Shown piece after piece: positions 5,674-60,495 of a stretch of 64,000 nucleotides of DNA; positions within the stretch are counted from its first letter, which is position 1, and each line of letters starts with the position of its first letter. A program made the position numbers and the translations under genes. The stretch lies in NCBI GenBank assembly GCA_963700145.1, contig OY969474.1, forward strand, positions 1,568,001-1,632,000, written 5' to 3'. The notes beneath the pieces are model-generated. The model made no database searches and was not told the DNA's origin. It worked only from the letters and a program-made list of their open reading frames with translations. The stretch comes from an uncultured Acidobacteriota bacterium (GTDB lineage: Bacteria; Acidobacteriota; Thermoanaerobaculia; Multivoradales; UBA5704).

Positions 5674-5683
5674 GCTCTCTCCT

Positions 5684-6472: not shown

Positions 6473-6568
6473 GCAGGGTCCCCCAGAAAAGGAGAGGTCC
6501 AAACTCTATACGGCCGCCGTGCGGCAAGTCCACCGCATCGGCTAGGCTGGCGCCGGGAGGAGAGCGGC

Positions 6569-7054: not shown

Positions 7055-7088
7055 AAGCGAAGGGGGCCCGGCGTCGCCGCCGGGCCCC
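7055..7088 (-). terminator. Intrinsic terminator hairpin between convergent genes
   Basis: GGGGCCCGGCG-TCGC-CGCCGGGCCCC 11-bp stem; followed by CTTCGCTTTT on the minus strand. Confidence 0.7.
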
Positions 7089-7113
7089 GCACCGCCCGCG
7101 AGAGCGGTGTGCT

Positions 7114-9120: not shown

Positions 9121-9280
9121 GGGATTCCCTCCAGGGTGACCCCTGGGCAGGGGAGACTGCGGGACACCCGTCCGGCCGGGCGGCGACGCAAAGTCGCCCT
9201 GAACAGGGGAGCAGCTATTGTGGAAGTGTAGTGGAAAAGTCGTTCCGGGACGCCCCCCGAAAGTCGCTGGAAGGGACGAA

Positions 9281-11203
<1,923 letters not shown>

Positions 11204-11227
11204 CGTGCGGCGGGAGACTGTAGCACG

Positions 11228-11477
11228 CGGTACGAGACGCTGGTCCCGCGGTACGAGACGCTGGTCCCGCGGTACGAGCTGGTCCCGCGGTACCGGGCGC
11301 TTGGTACCGCGGTACGAGGCGCTCGTACCGTGGTACCAGGCGCTCGTACTGCGGTACCTGACGCTCGTACTGCGGTACCGGCCGCTCGTACCGCGGTACC
11401 AGGCGCTCGTACCGCGGTACCGGCCACTCGCACCACGGTACGCGGCGCTGGTACTGCGGTACGAGGCGCCGGTCCTG
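11228..11477. repeat. 21-bp-period palindromic tandem array A (12 units, CGGTAC-N9-GTACCG)
   Basis: Units read directly, e.g. CGGTACgagacgctgGTCCCG, CGGTACcaggcgctcGTACCG; one 18-nt and one 22-nt unit. Confidence 0.95.
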
Positions 11478-11512
11478 TGGTTCGGGATAGCCTTTCCCGT
11501 CCCGGAGAGCCT

Positions 11513-13834: not shown

Positions 13835-14376
13835 GGCCTCGGGAAGCTTCCCGTCCTCCTCCGGAAGCTTCCCGCCCGCATCCGGAAGCTTCCCGACCGC
13901 CTCCGGAGGCTTCCCTGCCGCCTCCGGAGGCTTCCCGGCCGCCTCCGGAAGCTTCCCGGCCACCTCCGGAAGCTTCCCGGCCGCCTCCGGAAGCTTCCCG
14001 GCCACCTCCGGAAGCTTCCCGACCGCCTCCGGAAGCTTCCCGCCCGCCTCCGGAAGCTTCCCGCCCGCCTCCGGAAGCTTCCCGTCCGCCTCCGGAAGCT
14101 TCCCGGCCGCCTCCGGAAGCTTCCCGTCCGCCTCCGGAAGCTTCCCGGCCGCCTCCGGAAGCTTCCCGGCCGCCCCCGCAAGCTTCCCGACCGCCCCCGG
14201 AGGCTTCCCGGCCACCTCCGGAGGCTTCCCGGTCACCTCCGGAAGCCTCCCGGCCGCCTCCGGAAGCCTCCCGGCCGCCTCCGGAAGCTTCCCGGCCGCT
14301 TCCGGAAGCTTCCCGTCCACGTCCGGAGCTTCCCCGCCGCCTCCGGAAGCTTCCCTTTCGCCTCGGGAAGCTTCCT
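13835..14376. repeat. 21-bp-period palindromic tandem array B (26 units, CTCCGGAAGCTTCCCGGCCGC consensus)
   Basis: GGAAGCTTCC-type core recurs every 21 bp from 13842 to 14366 (one 20-nt unit at 14325); starts immediately after the glnS stop. Confidence 0.97.
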
Positions 14377-14492
14377 CCGGACCTGCGGTCGTCTCTTCAG
14401 GGCTCGGGAGCGCAACGCAGCCGCACGCGAAGGTTAACGAGGAAGGGGCCGAGATAAACACACATCAAGCCGTGCGACAATGCCGGTGCGCT

Positions 14493-14831
14493 ATGAGGAA
14501 AAAGGCTGATCACAAGAGGGTCGACAGCGATCGGGACACGATGCGTCCGGAGTACGACTTCTCTGGTGCTGCCCGCGGAGCAACGTCAGCTAGGTACGCC
14601 GAAGGCACGACTGTGGCGGTGGTCGCATCAGAGGTTCTCGACGCCTTCCCCGCCGAAGAACAGAAGAAGGACGACCTCCGCCCGGAGTACCACCTCGACT
14701 ACGCCCAGGCGAAACCGAACCGGTTTGCGAGTGAGTTGAGCCGGGATTCCGCTACCGTCGTTCTGCAGCCCGGTGCGGCTGCCACTACCCGGCGAAGGTC
14801 TAGACGCCCGCGCCCGCCCGAGAATGGCTAG
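14493..14831 (+). CDS. Small antitoxin-like protein with two DxxRPEY motifs
   Basis: DTMRPEYDFS and DDLRPEYHLDY...KPNRFA resemble N-termini of small BrnA/CopG-type antitoxins; no toxin partner recognised. Confidence 0.5.
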   Translation: MRKKADHKRVDSDRDTMRPEYDFSGAARGATSARYAEGTTVAVVASEVLDAFPAEEQKKDDLRPEYHLDYAQAKPNRFASELSRDSATVVLQPGAAATTRRRSRRPRPPENG

Positions 14832-14875
14832 GAGGTCGGTTCACCGTCGTGCACCGGTTCGTCCCGCCGCTCGCA

Positions 14876-17800
14876 CTAACTCGCCTCTGGCAGCCCAAGC
14901 TCGGGCAGGGACTCGACGATCCGGACTGTTTCAAGACTCACAGTGACGACCTGTCCGATCAGGCGGAGGATGTACTTCGGGTCGTCCTCTCGATTCGGAT
15001 CGTTCACGATGCCACTGCGTTTGTCAGTCGTGACACGGTATTGATCTACGATCCACCCCAACGCGCTCCTATGTCCCAAGCGATAGCGCTCGACATCGCG
15101 CGGGATGCCCTGCAGCGTCAGTGCCTGGTTGTAGATGAGCTCCCCAGCCTCCCGGTCGTATTTCATCCGCTCCACCCTGAAGTCGAGTTTCGCCTCCGTT
15201 TTCCAATGCTCGACGAGCGGAAACTCCGGCTGCCGCTCGTAGTCAACATGCAGTTCCGCAAGGTGGCTACCTGCCTCCGCAAATGGCCGGAACTCTGAAG
15301 CAAGTGGGATGCGCGGCAGTTCACGCCGCAGATTTGCGATAAAGCGCTCCCGGTACATCGGTTGGTGAAGAACGGCGTAGACATAGTGAAAGATGTCCCA
15401 CTTCGTTATAGCTGGGTCGTCATAGCGCTCTCGGAACACTGACAGCGACCAACTAGTCAAGTTCTCACGGCGTTTATTAGAGCCATCGAGGTCATAGACG
15501 TAGAAGGGGAAAACTTGGGAACCTCCTTGCGGCATGATATCCACGATCTGCCTAACGGCGAGGGCGAAGAACGGCCAGTCCTGTCCCACCTTGACCCAGA
15601 TGGCACGGTTCTCCTGCTCGGATGCTTCATTCGGAAAGATCTTGTTGAATAGGCGCGGCTCCTCGTTTAGAAGCGGGTCATGGTAGAGACACTTCGTCGT
15701 AAACGGTCTGTACTTCGCCCATCGAAGTGCTGCCGGACGGAAAGAGGTGGAACGGCCTCTCTGTAAGTCTAGCTTAAGGTCACGACTCCACGCGATCCTG
15801 CGCCCGTCATCGTCCACCCAGTCGTCGACCTCCTTCTTCTGTCGCTCAGCGATCGGCCACCGCGCCACGTGATCATTGTAAGTGTCGATCATTCGCTGGA
15901 TGTTTTCGCTCAGAGTTGCCCAATCAAAATTGTACGCCCAGGAGTCTCTATTTGTAGTCACTCCGAGACTGTAGAGGCGGAAGAGAACTTTGCCTGGAAC
16001 TCGGTTCGCGTCCACCTCCTTACTCCCCAATGGAAGGAACGACACGAACTCGGACCGAAGGTCACGTGTAAGCCAATTATGCCGCGAATCTGGTTCAAGG
16101 CGCTGCCACTCAATCGCAGAAACACGGCCCTTCTCCTCGAGGAATCGGCCCTTTTCTTCCCTGCGCCAGTCCTCTCCTGTTCGCGAATAGAAGATTTCAG
16201 CCCGTCCGCCGCGTTTGCTTCGCCTGACAAAAAGGTTGACGCTCACTCCGACCCTAATGCCGAACACATTGTGCGTCGTGCCCGAGAGCTTCGGGTTCTT
16301 GCGCACATTGCCACCGAGGTCAAGCACGTAGATGCGGTCAAATTCCTCTTCGAGGTAGCTGCGCATTCCGTCAGAGGCAATACCGTCAAGGAAGCCACTA
16401 TTGCAAACAAGCGCCACGATCCCCTTCTCGCCGATGCGGTCGGTGGCCCATCGGATTGCTCTTATGTAGGGATCGCGAAGCTTGGAAGTAGATGAGGCCT
16501 TCGAGGCTCTCGCGTAGGTCTCCCTTACCCGCTTGTCCATCTTCTTGTACTTACGGTTCTTGTTGTTGTCATTCTCGTTAACCTGCCCGACGTTGTACGG
16601 CGGGTTGCCGATCACTACCCTGATTGGAGCGCGCCTTTGACGCTCCACGCGCGCAGTGTTAGCCTCCGAGAACATCTGGTGCTGCTGGCTATCCTCCGCC
16701 AGCTCAAAAGTATCAACGAGGCAAATCCCCTCGAACGGCTCATAGTCGTCGGTGAGCTCATAGTAGGTGTGCTCGATGTTCATGCTCGCGATGTAGTACG
16801 GCAAGAGCATGACCTCGTTTGCGTGCAGCTCACGAGCGTACTTCTCAGGCAGAGAGCTCTTCTTGGTCTCCGCGATCTGCCGCAGCACCCGGACGATGAA
16901 GTTCCCGGTGCCAACAAATGGGTCGAGGACTTGGACATTCTCGGCCGCGAGGCTCGTGTCGAATTCGCTTGTCAGTAGCTCGTCTACGCTCCGCACCATG
17001 AAGTCGACGATGGGCTGTGGCGTATAGACGATGCCGTGCGTGTCGGCGACCTTCACCGAGAAGCCTTGGAAGAACTGTTCGTAGACAGTGTTGAGGAACG
17101 CCTGTTTCTGCGAGAAGTCGTCGATACCGGCGGCAGTCGCTTCAATGGCAGTGTAGAAGGGATCGAGACTCTTCAGGAACTCGTGGCGCGAGAAGCTCTG
17201 AGAGGTAAGTGCGTCGATCACCGTCTCGATCTCGGCCGCTATTGCATTGCGGCGCGTGAAGTCCGGGACTTGAAACACGTGACGGAAGATGCGCTCGGTA
17301 AGTAGGTGCTGGATCAGCATCTCCTCGACGGCGGCCTTCGAGATGTTCGGATTGAGGGAGGCCCGGCTCAGCTCCATGAAGGCATCGAACGCGGCGCGGA
17401 AGCGCCGGTTGCGCTGTTCTTCTCGGCGGATCAAGCTGAGCACGCTCTGAGCCAGCTCGGGGACACGGTCCTTGAACTCGCTTACCGCTTCTTCCCAGCG
17501 CTCGAGCTGCGGCTCCTCGTGCTCGAAGAAAAGACGGAGCGCGTCGACGAGGCGCGTGGGTTCGGCGACGGAGAAGTCGAGGGCTTCCGACCCCTGGTAA
17601 AGGAGGATGCGTCCGGGCTGCCAGAAGAGAGTGTTGTTGCGAGGATAGCCCTGACCGAACTTTTCTCGCGCCTGTTTCGCGAGATCAGCGGCCGCCCCCT
17701 TTGCCTCGTACCAACCTCGCGCCAGGCGGAACTCGTCAACCACAAGACCGTCGGGGCGGAGGTTGCGAGATCCGCGGCGCACCGTCGGCTCACGAAGCAA

Positions 17801-47557: not shown

Positions 47558-47633
47558 CGCGAACAAGCCCGCGCCGGTCGGCGGCACCAGCGCCGGAATG
47601 GCCATCATGAACGAGTTCGTGTACTCGGAGATG
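47558..47633 (+). repeat. 76-bp direct copy of cyanophycinase-like gene segment 44499-44574
   Basis: CGCGAACAAGCC..GGCGGCACCAGCGCCGGAATGGCCATCATG..GAGTTCGTGTACTCGG.GATG, 3 mismatches. Confidence 0.92.
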
Positions 47634-47762
47634 GCCGAGGTACTTAGCTACCTTTGCCGGTGTCTCGACCGGGAAGGATTCTCGGCGCCGGAGCATCCAA
47701 CGATTCGAGTAGGGATCGCTCTCGCCGGCTGCCTCCGCGCGGCGGCGGGAAAGGAGCCGCCG

Positions 47763-48752
47763 ATGAGATCCATTCCGGTCGTTGTCGCCCTCCTCGTCGC
47801 CGCCGCCTCGCCGGCCTTCGCCCAGGTGGATCGCTGGAGCATCGACGTCGAGGCCGTGTCGCTCGACGCCGGGGGGAACGATCGGCTCGTCCTGACGGAT
47901 CGCGCCGCCGCCGCGAGCGGATCGGCCACCGAGACCACCCACACCCTCGACGCCGGCTCCACGCTCGGCTACCGCGCCGAGGTGCACCGCTCCGGCGGCC
48001 GCTGGCGCTTCGGCGTCGACTTCCTCATCTACCGCACCGATCAGGAGGTCGATCCCGTAACCGGCGCCGCCGGCGGCGGCGCGGCCCAGCGGATCTTCGT
48101 CGTCGGCGGCGGTCAGGTCGTCTCGGACAACCCGGGCGAGCGGCTCTACTACCAGCGCCTCGAGGACACCACGATCGAGCTCTGGTCCGCCGACTTCGTG
48201 GCCTCGCGCGCCATCGCGGGGCGGGACGGCCGCGAGCTGCGGCTGGGGCTGGGCCTGCGCGCCGCCGACTTCGACAACGACTACCGCGCCGTCGCCGGCA
48301 TCGAGGGCGTCGGCGGCCTGCGGCTCGACGCCTCGTCGAACTACGACCGCATGCACGGGCCGCTGGTGGCGCTCAGCGGCGCGATCGAGCGCGGCCGCAA
48401 CCGCTTCGAGGGCACCCTCGGCCAGGCGGTGGTGTTCGGAGACGTCCAGCTGTCGAGCGGGCTGCGCGAGTTCGCCGGCCCACCGACCCTGGACGTCGAC
48501 GCCGAGTTCCCGGCGATCCGCGGCGAGCGCTTCAACCAGGTCGAGAGCGTCACCATCCCAATGACCGAGCTGCGCCTCGAGTGGCGGTTCCGGCTCACCG
48601 ACCACATCGCGCTCGGCGCCGGCGGCTTCTTCGCCGCCTGGACGGACCTCGCCGTGCCGCCCGGCGTCGAGGCGGGCTCGACCCTCGACACGCTCGACGA
48701 GAACACCCTCGAACTGTTCGGCGCCTCGGGGGGCGTGACCCTCCGGTTCTGA
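47763..48752 (+). CDS. Putative outer-membrane beta-barrel protein
   Basis: AAGGAG RBS; signal peptide AFA-Q; amphipathic strands; C-terminal GVTLRF. Confidence 0.7.
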   Translation: MRSIPVVVALLVAAASPAFAQVDRWSIDVEAVSLDAGGNDRLVLTDRAAAASGSATETTHTLDAGSTLGYRAEVHRSGGRWRFGVDFLIYRTDQEVDPVTGAAGGGAAQRIFVVGGGQVVSDNPGERLYYQRLEDTTIELWSADFVASRAIAGRDGRELRLGLGLRAADFDNDYRAVAGIEGVGGLRLDASSNYDRMHGPLVALSGAIERGRNRFEGTLGQAVVFGDVQLSSGLREFAGPPTLDVDAEFPAIRGERFNQVESVTIPMTELRLEWRFRLTDHIALGAGGFFAAWTDLAVPPGVEAGSTLDTLDENTLELFGASGGVTLRF

Positions 48753-49379: not shown

Positions 49380-50414
49380 CTAGATCGCTACTCGCAGGCG
49401 CCACCAGCCCAACCACGCCAGAAGCACGGCAGCGAGCAGCAATCCGGCGGCGGACGCCGCGGGCACCACGATAGGGGCAGTAAAGCAGAAGCGGACCTGA
49501 CCATTGCCGGTCTGGAAGCCGCCCATCGGGCTAAAGACCAGCGGTGCTGCTGAGTAGGACCCACCGCCGCCGCCAATGCCGCTAAGAGTCGCCGCCCCTC
49601 CACCTCCGCCGTCGAATCCACCGCCGCCTCCACCTCCGCCAACACCGTTGCTGGCGACGCCCGCACCACCGCCGCCGCCAAAACCCCCACTGCCACCGCC
49701 GCCGCCCCCGCTGCCGCCGGCCGCGCCATTGACGAGCGCAGCGCCGCCAGTGGCGGCTATGGGGCAGTTGCCAGTCGGTGCGGCGTCGCCGCCATCGGTG
49801 AGGAGACCGCCACCACCCGCGCCCGCGCAGCCCGAGGGATGACTACCGGCGGCCCCACCGTTGCCGCCAGCGCCTGCAACGCCTCCGGTACCGCCACCAC
49901 CACTGCCGCCAGCACCGGCTGTCCCGCCAGCGCCTCCGGCCGTACCCAACTGGCCAGCACCACCGCCACCACCGGCAGCAATGAGCAGGCCGCCTAGATT
50001 GGGCGCGCGATACACCCAAGAGCCACCACCTCCGCCACCGGCCGCGCCGGCCGCTCCAATGCCCCCGACCAGTACGTTGAGCGTCTCGCCGGGCGTGACG
50101 GCAAAATCCGCCACCAACCGCACGCCTCCTCCGCCGGCGGCTAGCGGCCCTGCACCGCCTCCAGCGCCAGCAAGGTCTATCCTCGCTTCTGTCACGCCCG
50201 GTGGGACGACAAACGTCTGCGGCGCCGGCGGAGACACCACGTCGAACACCACCACCCCGGTATCACTGCACGGCGGGGGAGGTTGCGCCACGCTCGGCTC
50301 AGCAGCCGTCACCATGACAACTAGCAGAGCTCGCCAGTGGAGCTTCCCCCCCTGCGCGGTCCTCTCGCGGATCTCACGTCCGCACCGGCCGCAGCCCCGC
50401 CTCTCGGGTGCCAC
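49380..50414 (-). CDS. Glycine-rich surface protein with IPTL-CTERM-like sorting tail
   Basis: QTFVVPPGVT...GAGGG...VTPGETLNVLVGG..G, LIAAGGGGG glycine-rich domain; tail VPAASAAGLLLAAVLLAWLGWWRLR; start uncertain. Confidence 0.72.
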   Translation of the reverse strand: MAPERRGCGRCGREIRERTAQGGKLHWRALLVVMVTAAEPSVAQPPPPCSDTGVVVFDVVSPPAPQTFVVPPGVTEARIDLAGAGGGAGPLAAGGGGVRLVADFAVTPGETLNVLVGGIGAAGAAGGGGGGSWVYRAPNLGGLLIAAGGGGGAGQLGTAGGAGGTAGAGGSGGGGTGGVAGAGGNGGAAGSHPSGCAGAGGGGLLTDGGDAAPTGNCPIAATGGAALVNGAAGGSGGGGGGSGGFGGGGGAGVASNGVGGGGGGGGFDGGGGGAATLSGIGGGGGSYSAAPLVFSPMGGFQTGNGQVRFCFTAPIVVPAASAAGLLLAAVLLAWLGWWRLRVAI

Positions 50415-50654
50415 CTGCGTCTCAAGAGATAAAGGGATAGGGCATTCCTTATCTGGGCAGAGCCTACCATCGTCCAGCGGGAGGGGCGGGATAGATCTCC
50501 GGCGTGCGCACAGTAGGGCGATGTCCCGATTCCTGTTGAATTTGGCTGAGTAGCGGCGGCGTCGTGCAGCCGTCCGCTGCTCCCGAGACACCGAAGCGAA
50601 GCGGCGGGTACCATGGAGAGAGCGAGGACGGTGGAACGGATCGCACCCTCTGCG

Positions 50655-50914
50655 AGGCGGACGGGGCCGACGACTGCCGTAGGTACACGATGGCCTTGCG
50701 CTGTCGATGAGAGGGCGAGATCTTCGGGTCGTCACGCAGCGCACTCATCGCGTGGCCCTCCTGCGGCGCGGTGAACCGCCTCGATCGCCTCCGCCATGCG
50801 GGCGATTAGCTCCTCTTCCACCTCGGGGGTCGTGTGCACCGGAGGTCTCCGCTCCGGCCCGGGATGGAGATCGAGATCCACTGGCAGGATCAGCTGCTGC
50901 AGACGGCCCTGCAA
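50655..50914 (-). mobile_element. Remnant of serine-recombinase element (small ORF + recombinase N-terminus)
   Basis: MSALRDDPKISPSHRQRKAIVYLRQSS (YxRxS catalytic motif) then loss of similarity; overlapped by upstream 60-aa ORF 50732-50914. Confidence 0.65.
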
Positions 50915-50975: not shown

Positions 50976-52100
50976 ATGGAACGCTCGACCGCCCTCCGCA
51001 CCCCCCGCCCCGCCGAGGAGATGGCCTTCCAGCCGCTCCTGGACTCCTTCCGCGGGCGCCTGGACCGCGAGCTGGCCGCCTTTCTGGCGCGCAAGCGCGA
51101 GGCGGCCGGAGCCGCCGAGGCGCTGGAGCTGGTTGACGGGGTGGCGCGCCTGGTGGCGCAGGGGGGCAAGCGCCTCCGCCCGGCCCTGGTGCTGGCCGCC
51201 TACCGGGCCTGCGGCGGCCGGCGGGAGGAGGCGGCGCTGCCGCTCGCGCTCTCGACCGAGCTGCTCCACACCTACCTCCTGATCCACGACGACATCATGG
51301 ACCACTCCGAGGTGCGCCGCGGCGAGCCGGCGGCCCACGTCCGCTTCGCCGACAGCCACGCCGCGCGCGGCTTCCGCGGCGACGCGGGCGACTTCGGCCG
51401 CTCGGCGGCGATCCTGGTCGGCGACCTCGCCCACACCTGGGCGGTGGAGCTGTTCGGCGCGGCTGCCGACCTGGTGCCGGACCCCGAACGCCGGCTTGCC
51501 CTGCGCGGCGCCTTCTCGGCGATGGCCGAGGAAGTGATCGCCGGGCAGTACCTGGAGATCCAAGTCGGGCTGCGGCCACGCTCCGAGGGAACGATCGAGG
51601 ACGAGCTGCTCCGCGTCCTCCGCCTCAAGTCGGGCCGCTACACCGCCGAGCGGCCGATCCAGCTGGGCGCCCTGCTGGCCGGCGCTCCGTCCGGCCTGCT
51701 CGATCTCTTGTCCCGCTACGGCGCCGCCGTCGGCGAGGCCTTCCAGCTCCAGGACGACCTCCTGGGCACGTTCGGCGACGCGGAAACGGTCGGCAAGCCG
51801 GTCGGCGCCGACCTGCGCGAAGGCAAGTACACGTTCCTCGTCCACCACGCGCTCGAGGCATCCTCCCCCGCCCAGCTCCGTCTGCTCAGCGACGCCCTCG
51901 GCGACCACGACCTCACCGCTGACCGGCTCGCCGCCGTCCGCCGCGCCCTCGAGGAGACCGGCGCCCGCGCCCGCGTCGAGGCCATGGTCGAGGAGCGCCT
52001 GCAGGTCGCCGCCGCCGCCCTCGAAGGCCTGCCGCTGGCGCCCGAGGGGGGCGCCTTCCTCGCCGGCCTCCTCGACTGGCTCTGGGAGCGAGAGCAGTGA
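50976..52100 (+). CDS. Polyprenyl diphosphate (FPP/GGPP) synthase
   Basis: GGKRLRP, LIHDDIMD...RRG (FARM), GQYLE, KSGRYT, AFQLQDDLLG (SARM), GKPVGADLREGKYT; extended -10 TGCTACACT at 50947. Confidence 0.95.
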   Translation: MERSTALRTPRPAEEMAFQPLLDSFRGRLDRELAAFLARKREAAGAAEALELVDGVARLVAQGGKRLRPALVLAAYRACGGRREEAALPLALSTELLHTYLLIHDDIMDHSEVRRGEPAAHVRFADSHAARGFRGDAGDFGRSAAILVGDLAHTWAVELFGAAADLVPDPERRLALRGAFSAMAEEVIAGQYLEIQVGLRPRSEGTIEDELLRVLRLKSGRYTAERPIQLGALLAGAPSGLLDLLSRYGAAVGEAFQLQDDLLGTFGDAETVGKPVGADLREGKYTFLVHHALEASSPAQLRLLSDALGDHDLTADRLAAVRRALEETGARARVEAMVEERLQVAAAALEGLPLAPEGGAFLAGLLDWLWEREQ

Positions 52101-53131
52101 AGCTCGCCCCCTGGGCCGCCGATCTCGGCCGCGACCGCAAGGCCGAGCACATCCGGCTCGCCCTCGAAGGCCGCATGCAGGGCACCGGCGGCGCCTTCGA
52201 CCGCTACCGCTTCGAGCACCAGGCCCTCCCCGAGCTCGACTTCGACGAGATCGACCTCTCGACCACCTTCCTCGGCAAGCCCCTGGCCGCCCCGCTCCTC
52301 GTCTCCTGCATGACCGGCGGCACCGAGATCGCGGCGCGGATCAACCGCCACCTGGCGCTCGGGGCCGAGCGGGTGGGGCTGGCGCTTGGCGTCGGCTCGC
52401 AGCGCAAAGCGTTGGAGGATCGGACGAAAGCTGATACCTTCCGCGTCCGCGACGCCGCGCCGTCCGTCCCCCTCCTGGCCAACCTGGGCGCCGTCCAGCT
52501 CAACTATGGGGTGGGGGCGGCCGAGTGCGAGGCGGCGGTGGCGATGATCGGGGCCGACGCCCTGGCCTTCCACCTCAACCCGCTGCAGGAGGCCATCCAG
52601 CCGGAGGGGCAGCGCGACTTCCGGGGGCTGGTCGCCAAGCTCGGCGAGGTGGCGCGGGGGCTCTCGGTGCCGGCGATCGCCAAGGAGATCGGCAGCGGCC
52701 TCTCGGCGCGCGCCGCACGGGCGCTCCACGACGAGGGGTTCCGGATCTTCGACACCGCCGGCAGCGGCGGCACGAGCTGGGCGCGGATCGAGGGGGAGCG
52801 GGCGGGGGACCCGGACCTGGGCGAGGTCTTCGCCGACTGGGGCATCCCGACGCCGGAGTCGATCCGGGCGCTGGCCGAGCTGCCGGGCATCACGTTGATC
52901 GGCAGCGGCGGCGTGCGCAACGGCGTCGACGCGGCCAAGGCGATCGCGCTGGGCGCGGATCTCGTGGGGCTGGCCTACCCGTTCCTGGAGGCCGCCAGCG
53001 AGTCGGCCGAGCGGGTCGTCGAGCGGGCCGAGCGGATCGTGCGCGAGCTCAAGATCGCCATGTTCTGCCTCGGCGCCAAGGACCTGGCGGCGCTCAAGGC
53101 CGCGACGCTGCACGGAAGGGCCGACCAATGA
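52097..53131 (+). CDS. fni: Type 2 isopentenyl-diphosphate delta-isomerase
   Basis: RKAEHI, MTGG, GVGSQR, ANLGAVQL, HLNPLQEAIQPEG, KEIGSG, GGTSW, WGIPT, SGGVRNG. Confidence 0.96.
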   Translation: MKLAPWAADLGRDRKAEHIRLALEGRMQGTGGAFDRYRFEHQALPELDFDEIDLSTTFLGKPLAAPLLVSCMTGGTEIAARINRHLALGAERVGLALGVGSQRKALEDRTKADTFRVRDAAPSVPLLANLGAVQLNYGVGAAECEAAVAMIGADALAFHLNPLQEAIQPEGQRDFRGLVAKLGEVARGLSVPAIAKEIGSGLSARAARALHDEGFRIFDTAGSGGTSWARIEGERAGDPDLGEVFADWGIPTPESIRALAELPGITLIGSGGVRNGVDAAKAIALGADLVGLAYPFLEAASESAERVVERAERIVRELKIAMFCLGAKDLAALKAATLHGRADQ

Positions 53132-54423
53132 GCCAGATCAAGCCCGTCGATCCCGTCCCCCCCGCGAGCCACTCGCGCGAAGAGCTGGTGCGTTCGCTGG
53201 TCTCCGGCGAGCGCCGCTTCCACGAGCTGCCGCGCGACCTCCCCGCCGGCGAGGCCGCCGAGGTCCGTCGCCAGGCCCTCGAGGAGATGACCCAGGCCGA
53301 GCTCAAGCACGTCGGCCACCACTCCCTCGACGTCTGCCGGGCCTCCTACCGCCACTGCGAGAACTTCATCGGCGTGGCGCAGGTACCGATGGGGGTGGTG
53401 GGGCCGCTGCGGGTGCGCGGCGAGCGGCTCGACGGCGAGGTCTACGTGCCGCTGGCGACGACCGAGGCGGCGCTCATCGCCTCGACCAACCGCGGGTGCG
53501 CCGCGCTGCGCGCCGCCGGCGGCGTCGTGGTGCGGGTCGAGGACGTGGGGATGACCCGCGCGCCGGTCTTCCGCACCTCCGGCGTCATCCAGACGCAGCA
53601 GTTCGTGCGCTGGATCCGCGAGCACGACGCCGAGCTGCGGAAGGTGGCCGAGGGGACCAGCCGCTACTTGAAGCTCCTCGACGTCCGCCCCTTCGCCTTC
53701 GGCACCACGGTCTTCCTCCGCTTCCGCTTCGACGCCGGCGACGCCATGGGCATGAACATGGCGACGATCGCCTGCGACCGCATGGTCAGCGAGCTGATCG
53801 AGCCGCAGACGGGCGTCCCCTGCATCGCCCTGTCGGGCAACTACTGCACCGACAAGAAGCCGGCCGGCATCAACTTCCAGGAGGGGCGCGGCAAGCGGAT
53901 CTACGCCGAGATCCTGCTCGACGGCGAAGTGCTGCACAGCTACCTCAAGACCGATTCGCGCTCGCTCGTCGAGGCGCAGTACCGCAAGAACCTGCTGGGA
54001 TCGGTGGCGGCCGGGTCGCTCGGCTTCAACGCCCACTTCGCCAACGTGCTGGCGGCCTTCTTCATCGCCACCGGGCAGGACGCGGCGCACGTCGTCGAAG
54101 GGTCGCTCGGGGTCACCTGCATCGAGCCGCGCGGCCCCGAGGGGGTCTTCGCCTCGGTCTTCCTCCCCGACGTGCCGCTCGGCGCCATCGGCGGCGGCAC
54201 CGCGCTCGACACCCAGCGCGAGGCGCTGGCGGTGATGGGGGTCTCCCCCGACCCGCAGCGGCGCGGCGACGCGGTGATCCGCTTGGCCGAGATCTGCGGC
54301 GCCGTGGTGCTCGCCGGCGAGATCTCGCTGATGGCCGCCTTCACCTCGCAGGACCTGGCGCGCGCCCACGAGCGCCTGGGCCGCGGCGCCGCCGCGCCCG
54401 ACCTGCCGCTGCTGCCGACCTAG
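53128..54423 (+). CDS. hmgA: Class I (NADPH, archaeal/eukaryote-like) HMG-CoA reductase
   Basis: CENFIG, PLATTE.AL.AS.NRG, GMTRAP, DAMGMN, cis-loop SGNYCTDKKP, ATGQD.AHVVE, GGGT, LAGEISL, AHERLGR. Confidence 0.95.
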   Translation: MSQIKPVDPVPPASHSREELVRSLVSGERRFHELPRDLPAGEAAEVRRQALEEMTQAELKHVGHHSLDVCRASYRHCENFIGVAQVPMGVVGPLRVRGERLDGEVYVPLATTEAALIASTNRGCAALRAAGGVVVRVEDVGMTRAPVFRTSGVIQTQQFVRWIREHDAELRKVAEGTSRYLKLLDVRPFAFGTTVFLRFRFDAGDAMGMNMATIACDRMVSELIEPQTGVPCIALSGNYCTDKKPAGINFQEGRGKRIYAEILLDGEVLHSYLKTDSRSLVEAQYRKNLLGSVAAGSLGFNAHFANVLAAFFIATGQDAAHVVEGSLGVTCIEPRGPEGVFASVFLPDVPLGAIGGGTALDTQREALAVMGVSPDPQRRGDAVIRLAEICGAVVLAGEISLMAAFTSQDLARAHERLGRGAAAPDLPLLPT

Positions 54424-54439
54424 CCCGGGAGGGCCCCGC

Positions 54440-55519
54440 TTGCCGGCGGTCGCGGTCTCCACACCTGGCAAGCTCATCCTCATCGGCGAGCACGCCGCCG
54501 TCTACGGTCGCCCCGCGCTCGTCGCGGCCGTGGACCGCCGCCTGACCGCCCGCCTGACGCCGCGTCTCGCCGGCGGGGTCGAGCTCGATCTTCCCCAGGT
54601 CGGCTACCGCGAAGAGCTCTCCTGGAGCGACCTCCTCGCCTACGCGCGCGAGGTCCGCGAGCGCTGGGAGCGCTACGCCGCCGAGCCCGGCGCCGCCGCC
54701 TTCCAGGCGGTACGCGGCGGCGACCCGGCGCACGTCGTCAAGGTCGCGCTCGGCGAGGCGGCCGAGGCGCTGGGCGAGGCCGGCGGCCCGCCGCTCCACC
54801 TACGCATCGACTCCCAGCTCCCGATCGGCTCCGGCTTCGGCAGCTCGGCGGCCACGGCGGTGGCGGTGGTGGCGGGGTACCTCGCCTTCCGCGGCGCCGA
54901 CGCCGGCCCGGAGGCCGTCCGCCGGCTGGCGCTGGAGGTCGAGCGCCGCCAGCACGGCATGCCCTCGGGGGTGGACGGCGCCACGGTCTTCGAGGGCGGC
55001 GTCCTCTGGGCGCGCCGCACGGCGGACGGCGGCCTCGAGAGCGAGCCGGTCGAGGCGCGCTCGCCGCTCCTCGCGGCGCTCCGCGTCTACGACACCGGCG
55101 CCCCTCCCGAGCCCACCGGGGCGGTCGTGGCGGCGGTGCGCGACCGCTGGCAGGGCGACCCGGCAGGCCTGGACCGCCTCCTCGACGGGATCGAGGCGGC
55201 GACCCGCGCCCTCCGCGCCGAGCTGGAGCGGGAGCGCGCGGACCCGGCGGCCGCCGTCCCCCTCCTGCGCGAGGCCGAGGCCTGCCTGGAGGAGCTGGGG
55301 GTGGTGCCGCCGGCGGTGCGCGAGCTGGCGCGGCGGGTCGAGGCCGAGGGGGGGGCGGCCAAGGTCTCGGGGGCGGGCTCCCTCGCCGGTCCGGCCGCCG
55401 GCTGCCTCCTCGTCTACCATCCCGACCCGGGCCGGATCCCGACCTGGCCCTTTCTTCGCAGGCTCTCTCATCTTCCGGTCGCCTTGGGGGCGGCCGGCTG
55501 CCGCCGGGAGGCGGCCTGA
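54440..55519 (+). CDS. mvk: Mevalonate kinase
   Basis: TTG start; PGKLILIGEHAAVYG, PIGSGFGSSAA GHMP motif, HG.PSGVD, KVSGAG. Confidence 0.9.
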   Translation: MPAVAVSTPGKLILIGEHAAVYGRPALVAAVDRRLTARLTPRLAGGVELDLPQVGYREELSWSDLLAYAREVRERWERYAAEPGAAAFQAVRGGDPAHVVKVALGEAAEALGEAGGPPLHLRIDSQLPIGSGFGSSAATAVAVVAGYLAFRGADAGPEAVRRLALEVERRQHGMPSGVDGATVFEGGVLWARRTADGGLESEPVEARSPLLAALRVYDTGAPPEPTGAVVAAVRDRWQGDPAGLDRLLDGIEAATRALRAELERERADPAAAVPLLREAEACLEELGVVPPAVRELARRVEAEGGAAKVSGAGSLAGPAAGCLLVYHPDPGRIPTWPFLRRLSHLPVALGAAGCRREAA

Positions 55520-56524
55520 ATGCTCAAGGCCACGATCGCCGCGCCCGCCAACATCGCCTTCATCAAGTACTGGGGCGCGAAGGACTTAGACCACGCGATC
55601 CCGAACAACCCGTCGATCTCGATGACGCTGTCGCGCTGCGTCTCGAACTGCACCGTCGAGCCGCTCGGCGGCGACGCCCGGGAGGACGAGGTCTGGCTGG
55701 CGCAGAGCGGCGGCGGCTTCGCCACCCCGGCCCACGGCTTCGGCGAGAAGGTGCGGGCGCAGCTCGACCGGGTGCGCGAGTGGTCGGGCTGGGAGGGGCG
55801 CTTCCGGGTGGCCACGCGCACCGAGTTCCCGAGCGCCGCCGGGCTCGCCTCGTCGGCGTCGGGCTTCGCGGCCTTGACGCTCGCCAGCGTCGCCGCCCTC
55901 GACCGCATGGCGACGCCGCAGGAGCTCTCGGCGCTGGCCCGCCGCAGCGGCTCGGGGTCGGCGGCGCGCTCCTGCTTCGGCGGCTACGTCGAGTGGCCGG
56001 CGGGCGGGCCCGACGACGACCCCTGGGCCGGCGCCCTGGCGAGCGCCGACGACTGGGACCTGCGCGACGTGATCGCGGTGGTGGAGATCGGGCCGAAGAC
56101 GATCCCGTCGCTGGAGGGGCACCGGCGGGCACCGACCAGCCCCTACTACAAGCGGCGGCTGGAGCTGCTGCCGGAGCGGCTGGAGCGCACGCGGCTGGCG
56201 ATCAAGGAGCGGGACCTTTCGCTGCTCGGGCCGGCGCTGGAGGAGGAGGCGATCGATCTGCACTTGATCGCGATGTCGTCGCGGCCGCCGGTCTTTTACT
56301 GGAGCTCGGGGACGGTGGAGGTGCTGCGGTTGATCCGGGAGATGCGGCAGGAGGGGGTGGAGGCGTGGGCGACGATGGACGCGGGCGCGAACGTGCACGT
56401 GATCTGTACGCCGGAGGCGGAGGATGACGTGGCGGAGCGGTTGGAGGAGCTGCCGGCGGTGGGGTTCGTGATCCGCGACTGCGTGGGGTCTGGGCCTAGT
56501 CGGGAGATTGAGCATCTGTTCTGA
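55520..56524 (+). CDS. Diphosphomevalonate decarboxylase family enzyme (probably phosphomevalonate decarboxylase)
   Basis: NIAFIKYWG, P.N.SISMTL, AAGLASSASGFAAL, ARRSGSGSAARS.FGG, TMDAGANVH. Confidence 0.9.
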   Translation: MLKATIAAPANIAFIKYWGAKDLDHAIPNNPSISMTLSRCVSNCTVEPLGGDAREDEVWLAQSGGGFATPAHGFGEKVRAQLDRVREWSGWEGRFRVATRTEFPSAAGLASSASGFAALTLASVAALDRMATPQELSALARRSGSGSAARSCFGGYVEWPAGGPDDDPWAGALASADDWDLRDVIAVVEIGPKTIPSLEGHRRAPTSPYYKRRLELLPERLERTRLAIKERDLSLLGPALEEEAIDLHLIAMSSRPPVFYWSSGTVEVLRLIREMRQEGVEAWATMDAGANVHVICTPEAEDDVAERLEELPAVGFVIRDCVGSGPSREIEHLF

Positions 56525-56544
56525 GGGGGGATCGCGCGATCACC

Positions 56545-56703
56545 GCCCGCCGGGTGCGCTCCCCTACGGCACCGGCGCGCGAGTTGAGGACTTCGGATCT
56601 GAGTCGCGCGCCTCCGGTTCGCTGCGCGCCGGATCGGTGGCGGACTGCGGTGGGGTTGCCGGCGCTGGCTCACAGGTGCCTCCGGGGAGCGCACCCGGCG
56701 GGC
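56545..56703. repeat. 159-bp inverted-repeat-bounded element (REP/MITE-like)
   Basis: GCCCGCCGGGTGCGCTCCCC (56545) and its exact reverse complement (56684-56703), inner GGCACC/GGTGCC pair; right end reads GTAG on minus strand. Confidence 0.75.
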
Positions 56704-56727
56704 TACCGTCGTGGTGAACCCTTGCAT

Positions 56728-56762
56728 GTCATCCTGAGCGAAGCGAAGGATCTGGGCGGGGG
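56728..56762 (+). repeat. REP-like palindrome, copy 1
   Basis: GTCATCCTGAGCGAAGCGAAGGATCTGGGCGGGGG. Confidence 0.8.
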
Positions 56763-56767
56763 AAGCT

Positions 56768-57553
56768 GTGGCTGACATCACCCTATTGAAGCTCGGCGGT
56801 AGCCTGATCACGGAGAAGGAGCGGGCTCGGACTGCGCGAGGGGAGGTAATCCGGCGGCTGGCGGGGGAGATCGTCGCGGCCGGGGCGGGGGGCTTGGTGC
56901 TCGGGCATGGGAGTGGGTCGTTCGGGCATGTGGCGGCGGCGCGGGCGGGCTTGGGGAGCGGGCCGGTGGCGCGGGAAAACCTGGACGGCGTGGCGGACAC
57001 GCAAGCGGAGGCGGCGGAGCTGCATCGGATGGTCGTCGTGGCGTTGCGGGAAGCGGGAGCGCGACCGTTTTCGTTCGTGCCGGGGAGCTTCTTGGTGGGA
57101 AGGAGCGGGCATGAGCACGGAGTGTTGCCGCCTGCGCTGCCGGTGGCGCTGCGCTCGGGCTTCCTCCCCGTGGTCTACGGCGACGTGGTTCTGGACACCG
57201 AGTGGGGCGCCGCGATCGTCTCGACGGAGGTCGTCTTCATCTTCCTCGCCCGCGAGCTGTTGGCCGCCGGCTTCACTGTCCGCCGCGCGATCTGGCTCGG
57301 CGAAACGGCCGGCCTCCTCGACTCCGCCGGTCGTACCATCCCTGAAATTCATCCCGACGATTGGGACACCGCCGTCAGGGCGCTCAGGTCCCCACGAGGC
57401 ACCGACGTCACCGGCGGCATGGGCCTCCGTCTCGTCGCCGCCGCCGCCCTGTCGGATGACGGCATCCCTTCGCTCCTCGCCGACGGCACCGTCCCCGGGC
57501 TCCTGGAGCGCGCCCTTCGCGGCGAGATGGTGCCGGGCACGCTGATAGGCTGA
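56768..57553 (+). CDS. Isopentenyl phosphate kinase (amino acid kinase superfamily)
   Basis: LKLGGSLIT.K, GHGSGSFGH (IPK signature His), PVVYGDVV, IVSTE, DVTGGM; located in mevalonate operon. Confidence 0.88.
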   Translation: MADITLLKLGGSLITEKERARTARGEVIRRLAGEIVAAGAGGLVLGHGSGSFGHVAAARAGLGSGPVARENLDGVADTQAEAAELHRMVVVALREAGARPFSFVPGSFLVGRSGHEHGVLPPALPVALRSGFLPVVYGDVVLDTEWGAAIVSTEVVFIFLARELLAAGFTVRRAIWLGETAGLLDSAGRTIPEIHPDDWDTAVRALRSPRGTDVTGGMGLRLVAAAALSDDGIPSLLADGTVPGLLERALRGEMVPGTLIG

Positions 57554-57561
57554 CTGCGGCG

Positions 57562-58512
57562 ATGGCCGACCTCGACGCGCACCTGCTCAAGACGAGCCGC
57601 ACGTTTGCGCTCTGCATCCCGCGGCTGGGGCAGCCGACGCGGCGGGAGGTGACGCTCGCCTATCTCCTGCTGCGGGTCGCCGACACGTTCGAGGACGCGG
57701 CCGCCTGGCCGCGGGCGCGGCGGATCGAGGCGCTGGAGCGGTTCGGCGCGCTCCTCGCGCGGCGCGCGCCCGAGGAGACGGCGGCGCAGGCTGCGGTCTG
57801 GGCGGAGGAGGTCCCCTGCGCCTGGCTGGCGTACCGGGAGCTGCTGGCCGACCTGCCCGAGGTGCTCGACGCCTTCTTCGGCCTGGCGCCGCCGGCGGTG
57901 GAGCTCATCCGCGCCCACATGCTACGCACGATCCGCGGCATGGCGGGGTACGTGGCGCGCACCGACGGCGCCGGCGAGCTGCGGCTGGCCGACCTCGCCG
58001 ACCTGCGCGGCTACTGCTACGTGGTGGCGGGGATCGTCGGCGAGCTGCTGACCGAGCTCTACCTGCTCGAGCGGCCGGAGCTCGCGGCGGTGGCGCCGCG
58101 GCTGCGCGAGCGGGCGCCGTTCTTCGGCGAGGGGCTGCAGCTCGTCAACATCCTCAAGGACTCGGCGTCCGACGCGGTCGAGGGGCGCTGCTATCTGCCG
58201 GCGGCGGTGGACCGCGCCGAGGCGCTGGCGCTGGCGCGCGAGGACCTGCGAGCGGCGGCCGAGTACGTGCTGGCGCTCCAGGCCGCCGGCGCCGAGCGCG
58301 GCCTGGTGGCCTTCAACGCCCTGCCGGCCGAGCTGGCGCTCGCCACGCTCGACCGCGTCGAGGCCGCCGGCCCCGGCGCCAAGCTCACCCGCCGCGAGGT
58401 CTTCGACATCGTCGACCGCGTCAACCAGGCCCTCGAGCGCGATGCCCCGGCCGTCTCCCCCGCCGTCTGGAACCCGGCGCAAGCCGCAACCGCCCCTCGC
58501 GCCGCGCACTAA
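57562..58512 (+). CDS. Squalene/phytoene synthase family protein
   Basis: LLKTSRTFAL.I, AYLLLRVADTFED, YCYVVAGIVGELLTEL, GLQLVNILKD...D..EGRCYLP. Confidence 0.9.
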   Translation: MADLDAHLLKTSRTFALCIPRLGQPTRREVTLAYLLLRVADTFEDAAAWPRARRIEALERFGALLARRAPEETAAQAAVWAEEVPCAWLAYRELLADLPEVLDAFFGLAPPAVELIRAHMLRTIRGMAGYVARTDGAGELRLADLADLRGYCYVVAGIVGELLTELYLLERPELAAVAPRLRERAPFFGEGLQLVNILKDSASDAVEGRCYLPAAVDRAEALALAREDLRAAAEYVLALQAAGAERGLVAFNALPAELALATLDRVEAAGPGAKLTRREVFDIVDRVNQALERDAPAVSPAVWNPAQAATAPRAAH

Positions 58513-58521
58513 CCTTAGCCC

Positions 58522-58556
58522 GTCATCCCGAGCGCAGCGAGGGATCTGGGCGGGGG
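58522..58556 (+). repeat. REP-like palindrome, copy 2
   Basis: GTCATCCCGAGCGCAGCGAGGGATCTGGGCGGGGG; 32/35 identical to copy 1. Confidence 0.8.
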
Positions 58557-58598
58557 CGCCGTCATGCCCGTCACTATAATCCGCCGCCGGAGGTGCCG

Positions 58599-60495
58599 AT
58601 GGCCCGCGTGCTCGATCTACCGCTCGTCGCTCCCCTGCTCTTCTCCTTCGCCGCCCTCCTCTGCGCCTGCGCCGGCGCGCCCGCGCCGGCGCCCTCCGGC
58701 TCCTCCACGCCGGCCGCCGCGCCCGCCGTCCAGGACCCTCACTCCTACGCCAAGCCCCAGGAGGTCGCCGTCGAGCACCTCGGGCTCGACCTCACGGTCG
58801 ACTTCCCGCGCAAGCAGCTCGCCGGGCGCGCCAGCCTCCGCATTCGCAACCGCACCGGCGCCACCCGGCTCCACCTCGACACCCGCGACCTCGACGTCCG
58901 CCGCATCCTCCTCGACGGCGGCACCGAGGCGCGCTTCACCCTCGGCGACCCCAAGCCCTTCCTCGGCCGCGAGCTGACCGTCGAGATCGCGCCCGACACG
59001 CGCGTCGTCCACATCGACTACGCCACCAGCGCCGACGCGGCCGCCCTGCAGTGGCTGGAGCCGCGGCAGACCTCGGGCGAGCACCCGTTCCTCTTCACCC
59101 AGTCGCAGGCGATCCTCGCCCGCACCTGGGTGCCGCTCCAGGACACGCCGAGCGTGCGCATGACCTACGAGGCGACCGTGCGCGTGCCGCCCGAGCTGAT
59201 GGCGGTGATGAGCGCCGAGAACCCGACGGCGAAGTCCGCCGACGGCGTCTACCGCTTCCGCATGCCGCAGGCCATCCCCTCCTACCTCCTGGCGCTCGCC
59301 GTCGGCGACCTCGCCTTCCGGCCGCTCGGCGACCGCGCCGGCGTCTACGCCGAGCCGGCGGTCGTCGAGCGCGCCGCCTGGGAGCTGGCCGACACCCCGA
59401 AGATGATCGCCGCCGCCGAGAAGCTCTACGGCCCCTACCGCTGGGGACGCTACGACGTGCTGGTGCTGCCGCCGAGCTTCCCCTTCGGCGGCATGGAGAA
59501 CCCGCGCCTCACCTTCGCCACGCCGACGATCCTGGCCGGCGACCGGTCGCTCGTGTCCCTCGTGGCGCACGAGCTGGCCCACTCATGGTCGGGGAACCTG
59601 GTGACCAACGCCACCTGGAACGACTTCTGGCTCAACGAGGGGTTCACCGTCTACTTCGAGAACCGCATCATGGAAGCGCTCTACGGCCGCTCGTACTCCG
59701 AGATGCTCGCGGCCCTCGGGCGTGGCGACCTCCTCGAGACGATCGAGGAGCTGGGCGCGGACAGCCCGGACACGCGGCTCAAGCTCGAACTCACCGGCCG
59801 CGACCCGGACGACGGGGTCACCGACGTCGCCTACGAGAAGGGGTATTTCCTGCTGCGGCGGATCGAGGAGGTCGTAGGGCGGAAGCCCTTCGACAAGTTC
59901 GTCAGCTCCTACTTCCAGCGCCACGCCTTCCGCTCGATGGACACCGAGACCTTCCTCGCCCTCCTCGACCGCGAGCTCCTCGCCAAGCACCCGGAGCTAA
60001 AGGCCGAGGTACGCCAGTGGGTCTACGAGCCGGGCCTCCCGGCGACCGCGCCGCAGCCCAAGTCCGACGCCTTCGCCAAGGTCGAGGCGCAAGCGCAGGC
60101 GTTCGCGGCCGGCACCCCGGCGGCCGACGCTCGCGACGCAGGGCTGGTCCACCCACGAGTGGCTCCACTTCCTCCGCACCCTCCCCGACCCGCTTCCCGC
60201 CGAGCGCATGGCCGACCTCGACCAGACCTTCAAGCTCTCCGACAGCGGCAACTCCGAGGTCCTCGCCGCCTGGCTGGAGAAAGTCATCGCCAGCAGCTAC
60301 GCCCCCGCCTACCCCGCCCTCGAGCGCTTCCTCACCGGCATGGGCCGGCGGAAGTTCCTCCAGCCGCTCTACACAGCGTTGGCGAAGACCCCCGCCGGCG
60401 CCGAACTGGCGCTCCATATCTACGAGAAGGCGAGGCCGGGGTACCACACGGTGTCGCGGCAGACGATTGACAAGATTCTGGACTGGCGGGGGTGA
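58599..60495 (+). CDS. M1 aminopeptidase (leukotriene A4 hydrolase-like lipoprotein), one frameshift near 60125
   Basis: TATAAT at 58575; lipobox-like LCAC; DPHSYA, SFPFGGMENP, HELAHSWSGN..WLNEG, AYEKG; C-terminal GRRKFL.PLY...YH in next frame. Confidence 0.92.

Follow-up and report, generated by a model that had tools for sequence, protein, structure and literature searches.

Among bacteria, the mevalonate pathway that passes through mevalonate 5-phosphate decarboxylase (MPD, also abbreviated PMD) has been described for a single phylum, the Chloroflexi (PMC6107057), and its later extension concerned archaea only (PMC11052028). All cultivated acidobacterial genomes were assigned to the methylerythritol phosphate (MEP) pathway, while one assembly, Mor1 (subdivision 22), carries most mevalonate genes, of a route left untyped (PMC5462960). 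[quoted passage not shown] This work concerns a seven-gene mevalonate operon (50976-58512, + strand) within a stretch of 64,000 nucleotides, the window, from the genome of an uncultured Acidobacteriota bacterium (contig OY969474.1, positions 1,568,001 to 1,632,000). Our literature search, which most subscription journals were outside the reach of, returned no report of the MPD route in Acidobacteriota/Thermoanaerobaculia and none of leucine supply without an HMG-CoA synthase in bacteria. The operon extends a lower pathway described before to a phylum new for it, and the entry to this pathway is likely a new variant.

We consider it probable that the operon converts HMG-CoA to isopentenyl diphosphate (IPP) and dimethylallyl diphosphate (DMAPP) by the haloarchaea/Chloroflexota-type route, that it is the sole isoprenoid supply of the cell, and that its HMG-CoA comes from leucine breakdown. 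Gene content, absences, residues, synteny and a fold match were observed directly, and from these we infer all activities and flux. Imported leucine would be taken to HMG-CoA by IlvE, a 2-oxoacid dehydrogenase, an acyl-CoA dehydrogenase, methylcrotonyl-CoA carboxylase (MCC) and a LiuC-like hydratase, all encoded outside the window. HMG-CoA reductase would yield mevalonate, mevalonate kinase (MVK) mevalonate 5-phosphate, the decarboxylase isopentenyl phosphate, and isopentenyl phosphate kinase (IPK) IPP, which Fni would convert to DMAPP. The prenyl synthase would form farnesyl diphosphate (FPP) or geranylgeranyl diphosphate (GGPP), and the last operon gene would then lead, probably, to squalene. 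The paired AtuA and AtuA-ferredoxin proteins, encoded between the carboxylase and the hydratase in most relatives, would act as a catabolic exit to acetate and acetoacetyl-CoA. The seven genes, all in one orientation, were identified against Pfam and NCBIfam:

50976..52100, + strand: trans-prenyl diphosphate synthase, FPP/GGPP type (PF00348, E 3.7e-56; below every NCBIfam cut-off; motifs DDIMD and FQLQDDLL)
52097..53131, + strand: type 2 isopentenyl-diphosphate isomerase, fni (TIGR02151, 374 bits, cut-off 281)
53128..54423, + strand: class I (NADPH) HMG-CoA reductase (TIGR00533, 448 bits, cut-off 442; class II model, 38 bits)
54440..55519, + strand: mevalonate 5-kinase, TTG start (TIGR00549, 148 bits, slightly below the cut-off of 163; GHMP motifs present)
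55520..56524, + strand: predicted mevalonate 5-phosphate decarboxylase (TIGR01240, 210 bits, cut-off 171; Ala20, His201)
56768..57553, + strand: isopentenyl phosphate kinase (NF040647, 133 bits, cut-off 120; 7/7 PDB matches are IPKs or IPK-family proteins)
57562..58512, + strand: squalene-synthase-like head-to-head prenyl synthase (PF00494, E 7.9e-33)

A first-pass annotation, made from the sequence letters alone, had listed the same seven genes and proposed that they form a haloarchaea/Chloroflexi-type pathway in an apparent acidobacterium. Each gene was recovered in its place on the + strand, and the operon indeed holds no second GHMP kinase.

The best PDB match of the decarboxylase is 6N0X (E 1.8e-65), with the enzymes of the next organisms at 3.7e-45 or worse, and its Asp287 lies within the DAGxN catalytic motif. 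The sister entry 6N0Z, which we take to be a specificity-switch mutant, departs from 6N0X in two aligned residues, with Lys in place of Asn and Met in place of His. The aligned diphosphate enzymes of Staphylococcus and Enterococcus type carry Lys and Met at these sites, where the window decarboxylase has Ala20 and His201. 6N0X is the PMD of Anaerolinea thermophila, and PMD specificity has been switched by mutagenesis (PMC9254496); this Lys and His have been named as the diagnostic residues of decarboxylase type (PMC11052028).

The residue type at positions 20 and 201 was compared with the neighbouring genes in 97 related loci (80 loci plus 17 class loci). An IPK gene was found in 57 of the 80 loci, and in 55 of these the decarboxylase has His201 and a residue 20 that is not basic; of the other two, one carries Lys and one does not align at this position. 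In ten further loci a second GHMP kinase, presumed to be phosphomevalonate kinase (PMK), stands beside MVK; all ten carry Lys or Arg at residue 20, with residue 201 being His in five and Gln in five. Neither kinase occurs in the stretch covered for the remaining 13. Across the 97 loci, the Lys is missing from 65/66 decarboxylases linked to IPK, and Lys/Arg20 accompanies the second kinase in 15/15 cases. Within the same class, distant homologues are Lys20/Met201 in 8/8 (PMK-like kinase in five, IPK in none), and order members combine the non-Lys/His type with IPK in 9/9. Therefore position 20 discriminates between the two types and His201 alone does not.

The rest of the genome agrees with this pattern. 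It encodes three GHMP N-domains: two belong to the mevalonate kinase and the decarboxylase of the operon, and the third to a protein encoded elsewhere that resembles heptose kinases. No PMK was found in the genome; a PMK-like profile matches only the mevalonate kinase and this third protein, weakly, and the mevalonate kinase scores 34.5 and 27.5 bits on PMK models. Searches for the MEP genes DXR, IspG, IspE, IspF and IspH were likewise negative in the genome, queries with Dxs and IspD gave weak matches to other families only, and IspG is absent from all 77 genomes of the family sample (each at least 85% complete). PMK together with a Lys/Met-type decarboxylase, the markers of the classical pathway, was thus not found here, while other families of the class have both. 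Loci L222-L229, from such families, encode this MVK, PMK and Lys/Met decarboxylase route, some of them beside DXR, so that three isoprenoid routes coexist in one class.

A competing explanation holds that the third GHMP kinase is a cryptic PMK whose product, mevalonate 5-diphosphate, is the substrate of the decarboxylase, and that IPK only recycles isopentenyl phosphate. This kinase does fall below every family cut-off, and diverged PMKs were previously overlooked in Bacteroidetes (PMC6107057). Its best matches are nevertheless heptose/sugar kinases (E 3.8e-24), and its gene, next to one for a peptidase, is at a great distance from the operon. The classical route is favoured by the scores of the decarboxylase, which are 210 bits on TIGR01240 and 142 bits (cut-off 475) on the haloarchaeal PMD model NF040704; the scarcity of Lys20 beside IPK and the absence of any PMK-like gene from the 57 loci of the acidobacterial clade described below contradict it. 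We regard the classical route as most improbable. The low NF040704 score places the enzyme outside the haloarchaeal equivalog, of which it is then not a member even if, as its residues suggest, it works like a PMD. The TIGR01240 score, the His201 of five loci with a second kinase and the dual specificity reported for the Chloroflexota enzyme (PMC11052028) all weigh against an MPD assignment. Because of Ala20/His201, the co-variation of residue 20 with IPK or a second kinase, the lack of PMK and MEP genes, and the taxonomy, the isopentenyl-phosphate route (MPD and IPK) is nonetheless very likely the one encoded in this genome, as the first-pass annotation had proposed. The archaeal (AcnX/AMPD) pathway, with its phosphomevalonate dehydratase and anhydromevalonate phosphate decarboxylase, would be superfluous if the GHMP enzyme acts as proposed.

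That annotation would have been undone by a PMK elsewhere in the genome combined with a decarboxylase preferring mevalonate 5-diphosphate, or by a contig of Chloroflexota origin. No such PMK was found, and a Chloroflexota contig was ruled out, as was a misplaced island: Thermoanaerobaculia flanks match at 84-95% and GC content is level across the operon. The genome (5.46 Mb, a single contig, rated 95.4% complete) is that of an acidobacterial host (Thermoanaerobaculia, Multivoradales). Its closest decarboxylase loci are from Thermoanaerobaculia or Acidobacteriota; in one of them, 5.6 kb of the operon align at 92%, and in another the alignment (84-95%) takes in the flanks as well. A second member of the order (G116) matches Candidatus Multivorans loci at 75-84%, flanks included, and groups with them in the decarboxylase tree, which points to Multivoradales as the order. 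The 95% completeness of the window's genome and a duplicated stretch at its contig start do count against the absences reported here. This duplicate of about 10 kb (4839-15177 vs 1369036-1382489; purH, a lolA-like gene and a long-chain prenyl synthase; 92-94% identity) indicates that the assembly may mix strains and is not necessarily closed. In one soil RNA run, operon sequence of relatives appeared as short contigs (share 0.06); this evidence, weak and strandless, was discounted. ESM Atlas searches identified no more than the broad families.

The first-pass annotation had called a compact operon of this kind unusual, which was not borne out: it is typical of the whole order. In a class sample of 151 genomes, each at least 90% complete (G004, flagged unpublished, was counted in class tallies only), the decarboxylase occurs in 34/36 other order members and in 16/114 other class genomes, where it is of the distant Lys/Met type in those inspected. 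DXR occurs in 25/36 and 106/114, respectively. The 57 acidobacterial-clade loci, many of which stop at contig edges, contain MVK (54), IPK (53), the reductase (48), fni (46), the squalene-synthase-like gene (40) and the prenyl synthase (31), with PMK in none and HMG-CoA synthase in one. A decarboxylase tree was built from 62 rows (52 of the 81 window and relative sequences plus 10 class sequences), without sequences of the enzymes characterised from Haloferax, Roseiflexus and Anaerolinea thermophila. The acidobacterial decarboxylases form one clade (100/100), with three Gemmatimonadota sequences inside and six Chloroflexota sequences outside; deeper branching is unresolved and no donor is claimed.

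The same operon was seen in Gemmatimonadota assemblies (L028, L043, L045, L059), nested in the acidobacterial clade, and was likely acquired there by transfer. HMG-CoA synthase was found in none of four Gemmatimonadales assemblies with the operon, the completeness of which is unknown, and of two Gemmatimonadota assemblies tested for IspG, one lacks it and one has a partial copy. A Serratia quinivorans locus (L061:4075-8999) encodes an HMG-CoA-synthase-like protein, reductase, MVK and a decarboxylase that belongs to this clade and is of the non-Lys/His type, with no IPK within the 17 kb covered; it may yield isopentenyl phosphate that is put to some other purpose. MPD-type decarboxylases with IPK also occur in Gammaproteobacteria assemblies (non-Lys/His) and in one Patescibacteria record with Lys20 beside IPK (L055, L063, L078, L086). 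In three Thermoanaerobaculia loci (L020, L058, L066), the squalene-synthase-like gene directly follows the decarboxylase, without IPK in the stretch covered.

The entry to the pathway is the less conventional part. The first-pass annotation had advised a search for HMG-CoA synthase, and none was found in the genome with PF01154 or PF08540. Relatives have two types of synthase, and profiles made from each also retrieved no synthase, their best match being FabH (E 4e-5), and the type III polyketide synthase and FabH matches of the genome were rejected as candidates. The family was counted by protein query, as PF01154 alone picked up 16/25 archaeal-type synthases; a partial match in G154 (E 6.5e-6) was excluded and a synthase in two pieces (G166) was included. 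Of the 77 family genomes, four have a bacterial-type synthase, 25 an archaeal-type synthase and 48 neither. Those without one include G190, G192 and G064, rated 100% complete in 1-3 contigs. The weak PF01154 matches in the family were considered as FabH, which inspection ruled out: they are archaeal-type HMG-CoA synthases. These synthases sit in a TetR-synthase-thiolase cassette in 25/77 genomes. Loci L115-L120, L217, L247 and L248 show this cassette of archaeal-type synthase and thiolase behind a TetR regulator, which is divergent from atuA in a MEP-using family. With IspG in 0/77 genomes and no synthase in 48/77, most of the family therefore has neither known isoprenoid entry.

It is improbable that a synthase is present and was missed, either by assembly loss or as a diverged thiolase-fold or DRE-TIM enzyme (FabH or the LeuA-like protein). 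Every genome was assembled from a metagenome, and one of the three same-genus genomes (G159) does have a synthase. The misses are not due to assembly loss, since two other single-copy genes were recovered in 75/77 of the same assemblies. The yield of PF01154 leaves room for a third, more diverged type to hide; the top thiolase-fold match is, however, FabH at the E value given above, and the LeuA-like gene adjoins an isopropylmalate-type dehydrogenase. Moreover, the two known types are unrelated and at unrelated sites, as would be the case for accessory genes. Direct sight of the operon in just three synthase-less family genomes (G000, which is the genome of the window, G040 and G064) tempers the family-wide conclusion.

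The LeuA/homocitrate-synthase-like gene and the adjoining dehydrogenase (1555521-1558538) are 75-81% conserved in the family. At 2657269-2659341 lies a gene for an aconitase-family protein in which the small and large parts are fused; these genes may serve either leucine synthesis from valine or lysine synthesis. Three extra class I HMG-CoA reductase-like genes (about 40% identity) lie at 4975999-4982233 (L107) and 5434611-5435708 (L108). Two of them share a cluster with an acyl carrier protein, a ketosynthase, a halogenase-like flavoprotein and a CrtI-like oxidoreductase, which suggests a thioester-reducing role in an unknown natural product. They were rejected as the pathway reductase, being below the TIGR00533 cut-off (2/3 tested) and in unrelated clusters.

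A supply from outside would also require no synthase. In this scenario, cells scavenge mevalonate or C5 alcohols, which MVK, MPD and IPK activate, with HMG-CoA reductase being secondary. IPK serves prenol salvage, which fits such a role. The reductase, in contrast, belongs to class I, the biosynthetic NADPH type; its gene is translationally coupled and, at 60-98% identity, better conserved than any other in the operon. It is present in 48/57 clade loci, with most misses at contig ends, and the operon shows no transporter gene. Scavenging is accordingly judged very unlikely.

Leucine is proposed as the origin of the HMG-CoA because no HMG-CoA synthase was found in the genome, and a shunt like that of Halobacterium and Leishmania is the simplest reading. 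Among the proteins encoded are IlvE, three E1 components of 2-oxoacid dehydrogenases, eight acyl-CoA dehydrogenase matches and one biotin carboxylase other than that of acetyl-CoA carboxylase. The carboxyltransferase matches MCC-beta (5e-154) ahead of geranyl-CoA carboxylase (5e-109) and propionyl-CoA carboxylase (PCC; 1e-63) among PDB entries, retains the aromatic segment that closes the MCC pocket, and coexists with a separate PCC-type beta subunit. The crotonase resembles branched-substrate (LiuC-like) hydratases. MCC-beta and the hydratase are each found in 75/77 family genomes, and together in 47/48 synthase-less and 27/29 synthase-positive genomes. Of 74 genomes, 37 have the two genes on the same strand and no more than 10 kb apart; three, the window's genome included, have them on a single contig at a large distance, and 34 on different contigs. 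The cluster order is mccB-atuA-(membrane protein)-small atuA-hydratase. IlvC and IlvD were not found in the genome; branched-chain carbon must therefore be imported.

The usual next enzyme of leucine degradation, HMG-CoA lyase (LiuE), does not reach its cut-off in any of the 77 family genomes, while a control protein of the same order scores 307; a 118-bit match in G201 lies below the cut-off and was excluded. No CitE-type lyase was found in the window's genome, and its sole HMGL-like Pfam match was rejected as a lyase, being the LeuA/homocitrate-synthase-like protein. Several points weaken the case for leucine. No isovaleryl-CoA dehydrogenase or MCC alpha subunit can be assigned among the acyl-CoA dehydrogenases and the biotin carboxylase, and the latter would have to serve both MCC and PCC. 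As MCC and the hydratase are equally common in synthase-positive genomes, their presence alone is no proof of a supply role. The hydratase reaches no curated LiuC cut-off, and HMG-CoA reductase uses the (S) form of HMG-CoA, which would be an obstacle if the hydratase makes the (R) form. In Mycobacterium tuberculosis, leucine degradation passes through (R)-HMG-CoA (PMC6689899). On balance, the gene complement makes leucine a likely main source of HMG-CoA in the synthase-less members.

The AtuA pair (PF07287 and PF23544; small subunit ferredoxin-like) offers a substitute for the absent lyase. The predicted AtuA model (pLDDT 96) has one strong fold match, the citramalate lyase 9EVF (TM 0.80, E 3.5e-25, 17% identity), and a profile match to citramalate lyase was obtained as well (E 3.3e-14). 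In the class sample, 38 genomes have AtuA and 108 have matches to the lyase family. AtuA is missing from all 70 genomes whose lyase is top-scoring; 29 have AtuA only and 14 have neither, in a set of relatives that are not independent. The nine genomes in which AtuA accompanies a weaker lyase paralogue count against the proposal. The model and this distribution make AtuA a likely acetate-releasing substitute for HMG-CoA lyase. By analogy with citramalate lyase, HMG-CoA would be split by the pair, with acetate and acetoacetyl-CoA as products, so that HMG-CoA is probably a branch point and not a dead end.

The main rival source is this step in reverse: run in the condensing direction, the same pair could make HMG-CoA de novo from acetoacetyl-CoA and acetate or an activated acetyl group, nucleotide-assisted; it would then be a non-homologous synthase and leucine would be optional. 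In favour of this, AtuA proteins of different genera share about 80% identity, the structure that AtuA matches in fold contains bound ADP and pyruvate, acetoacetyl-CoA could come from three thiolases, and the small subunit lies beside the hydratase in 25/25 loci. The characterised homologue is, however, a lyase that converts citramalate to pyruvate and acetate (bioRxiv 10.64898/2026.01.16.699985). Furthermore, atuA belongs to the mccB-hydratase catabolic cluster and not to the mevalonate operon, and AtuA is found in MEP-using families without mevalonate genes (f15 15/16, f6 2/2). We give synthesis by AtuA a small chance and retain leucine as the proposed source. Read as a whole, the chances are about even that this widespread soil acidobacterial family has replaced both known isoprenoid entries, with a leucine-derived HMG-CoA node that feeds an archaeal-type lower pathway and has an AtuA/CmlAB-fold non-homologous lyase as its other outlet. 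At its boldest, this view lets the lyase also work backwards, as a new kind of HMG-CoA synthase.

Within the operon, starts and stops overlap or almost abut (intergenic distances in operon order of -4, -4, 16, 0, 243 and 8 bp), and the catalytic motifs are intact. The reductase has ENFIG, TTEAAL, DAMGMN and GNYCTDKK, and Lys8, His54 and Asp139 of IPK are kept in at least 90% of 56 sequences. The last gene product carries both Asp-rich motifs of the squalene-synthase type. Its top NCBIfam model of six is TIGR01559 (77 bits, far below the cut-off of 287), and in the PDB it matches squalene synthases (E 7.7e-10) before dehydrosqualene synthase (2.8e-5). It therefore appears nearer to squalene synthases than to CrtM/CrtB, and squalene is the more likely C30/C40 product. 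A hopanoid fate of a C30 product was ruled out by the absence of a squalene cyclase from the window's genome; a genuine cyclase was seen in 1/5 relatives checked. Two further features were recorded in and next to the operon:

56726..56765, no strand: short repeated element in the MPD-IPK spacer (143-150 genome matches of at least 25 bp; outside the pathway)
58593..60470, + strand: M1-family aminopeptidase (PF01433; TIGR02411, 469 bits)

The repeat, of about 40 bp and with about 150 genome copies, occupies a second spacer at 58519-58560. The lipoprotein-like aminopeptidase lies 3' of the operon in many Thermoanaerobaculia loci and may supply amino acids or be a bystander. Upstream are a glycine-rich, secreted-looking protein (49380-50744, - strand) and a probable outer-membrane beta-barrel (47598-48752, + strand), both without a Pfam or NCBIfam match.

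The MPD/IPK route is the rule in this acidobacterial order and was likely passed to Gemmatimonadales; with sister families using the MEP or the classical route, the group offers a natural series for pathway swapping. If the proposal is true, a synthase-less mevalonate pathway as the sole source would make undecaprenol and quinone synthesis dependent on imported leucine. With IlvC and IlvD missing, it would also predict a concrete growth requirement for this family, as yet uncultured, and lipids whose isotope signature is leucine-like. A directly testable substrate would be at hand for AtuA, a family long without assignment, and a shorter module from leucine or isovalerate to IPP for terpenoid engineering.

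Compared with the route of Haloferax volcanii, Roseiflexus castenholzii and Anaerolinea thermophila (6N0X), the window's genome shares MVK, a non-Lys/His decarboxylase, IPK, a type 2 isomerase, and the lack of PMK and MEP genes. It differs in phylum, in the absence of HMG-CoA synthase and in its decarboxylases, which group in a clade of their own that leaves out the six sampled Chloroflexota sequences. The window has a class I reductase and a single operon, whereas Chloroflexi are described with a class II reductase and unclustered genes (PMC6107057). Acidobacterium Mor1 belongs to another subdivision and has shc, while the window's genome has no cyclase (PMC5462960). The leucine shunts of Halobacterium salinarum and Leishmania mexicana (PMC8791446), and the one proposed for Calditenuis ramacidaminiphagus (PMC12979851), share the entry at HMG-CoA; here, leucine would be the sole entry, in a bacterium with neither synthase nor MEP genes.

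The carboxylase beta subunit and a branched-substrate hydratase around an HMG-CoA-type intermediate are shared with Pseudomonas liuABCDE/atuABCDEFGH and with the Myxococcus Liu/AIB node (MvaS, LiuC, AibR). In Pseudomonas, AtuA has tentatively been assigned as the acetate-releasing lyase (PMC4847356), and the Atu lyase step has also been credited to LiuE (PMC4097962). Here, by contrast, LiuE is absent and atuA accompanies an MCC-type and not a geranyl-CoA-type carboxylase. The TetR-linked synthase cassette of 25/77 relatives resembles the Myxococcus AibR-mvaS layout, but the Myxococcus node runs from acetyl-CoA to isovaleryl-CoA, unlike the direction proposed here. The citramalate lyase CmlAB (9ERQ, 9EVF) shares the whole-chain fold and a large subunit combined with a small ferredoxin-like one, and both enzymes would release acetate from a tertiary 3-hydroxy acid. 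The AtuA pair is set apart from CmlAB by its low sequence identity, another gene context and its presumed substrate, HMG-CoA or free 3-hydroxy-3-methylglutarate.

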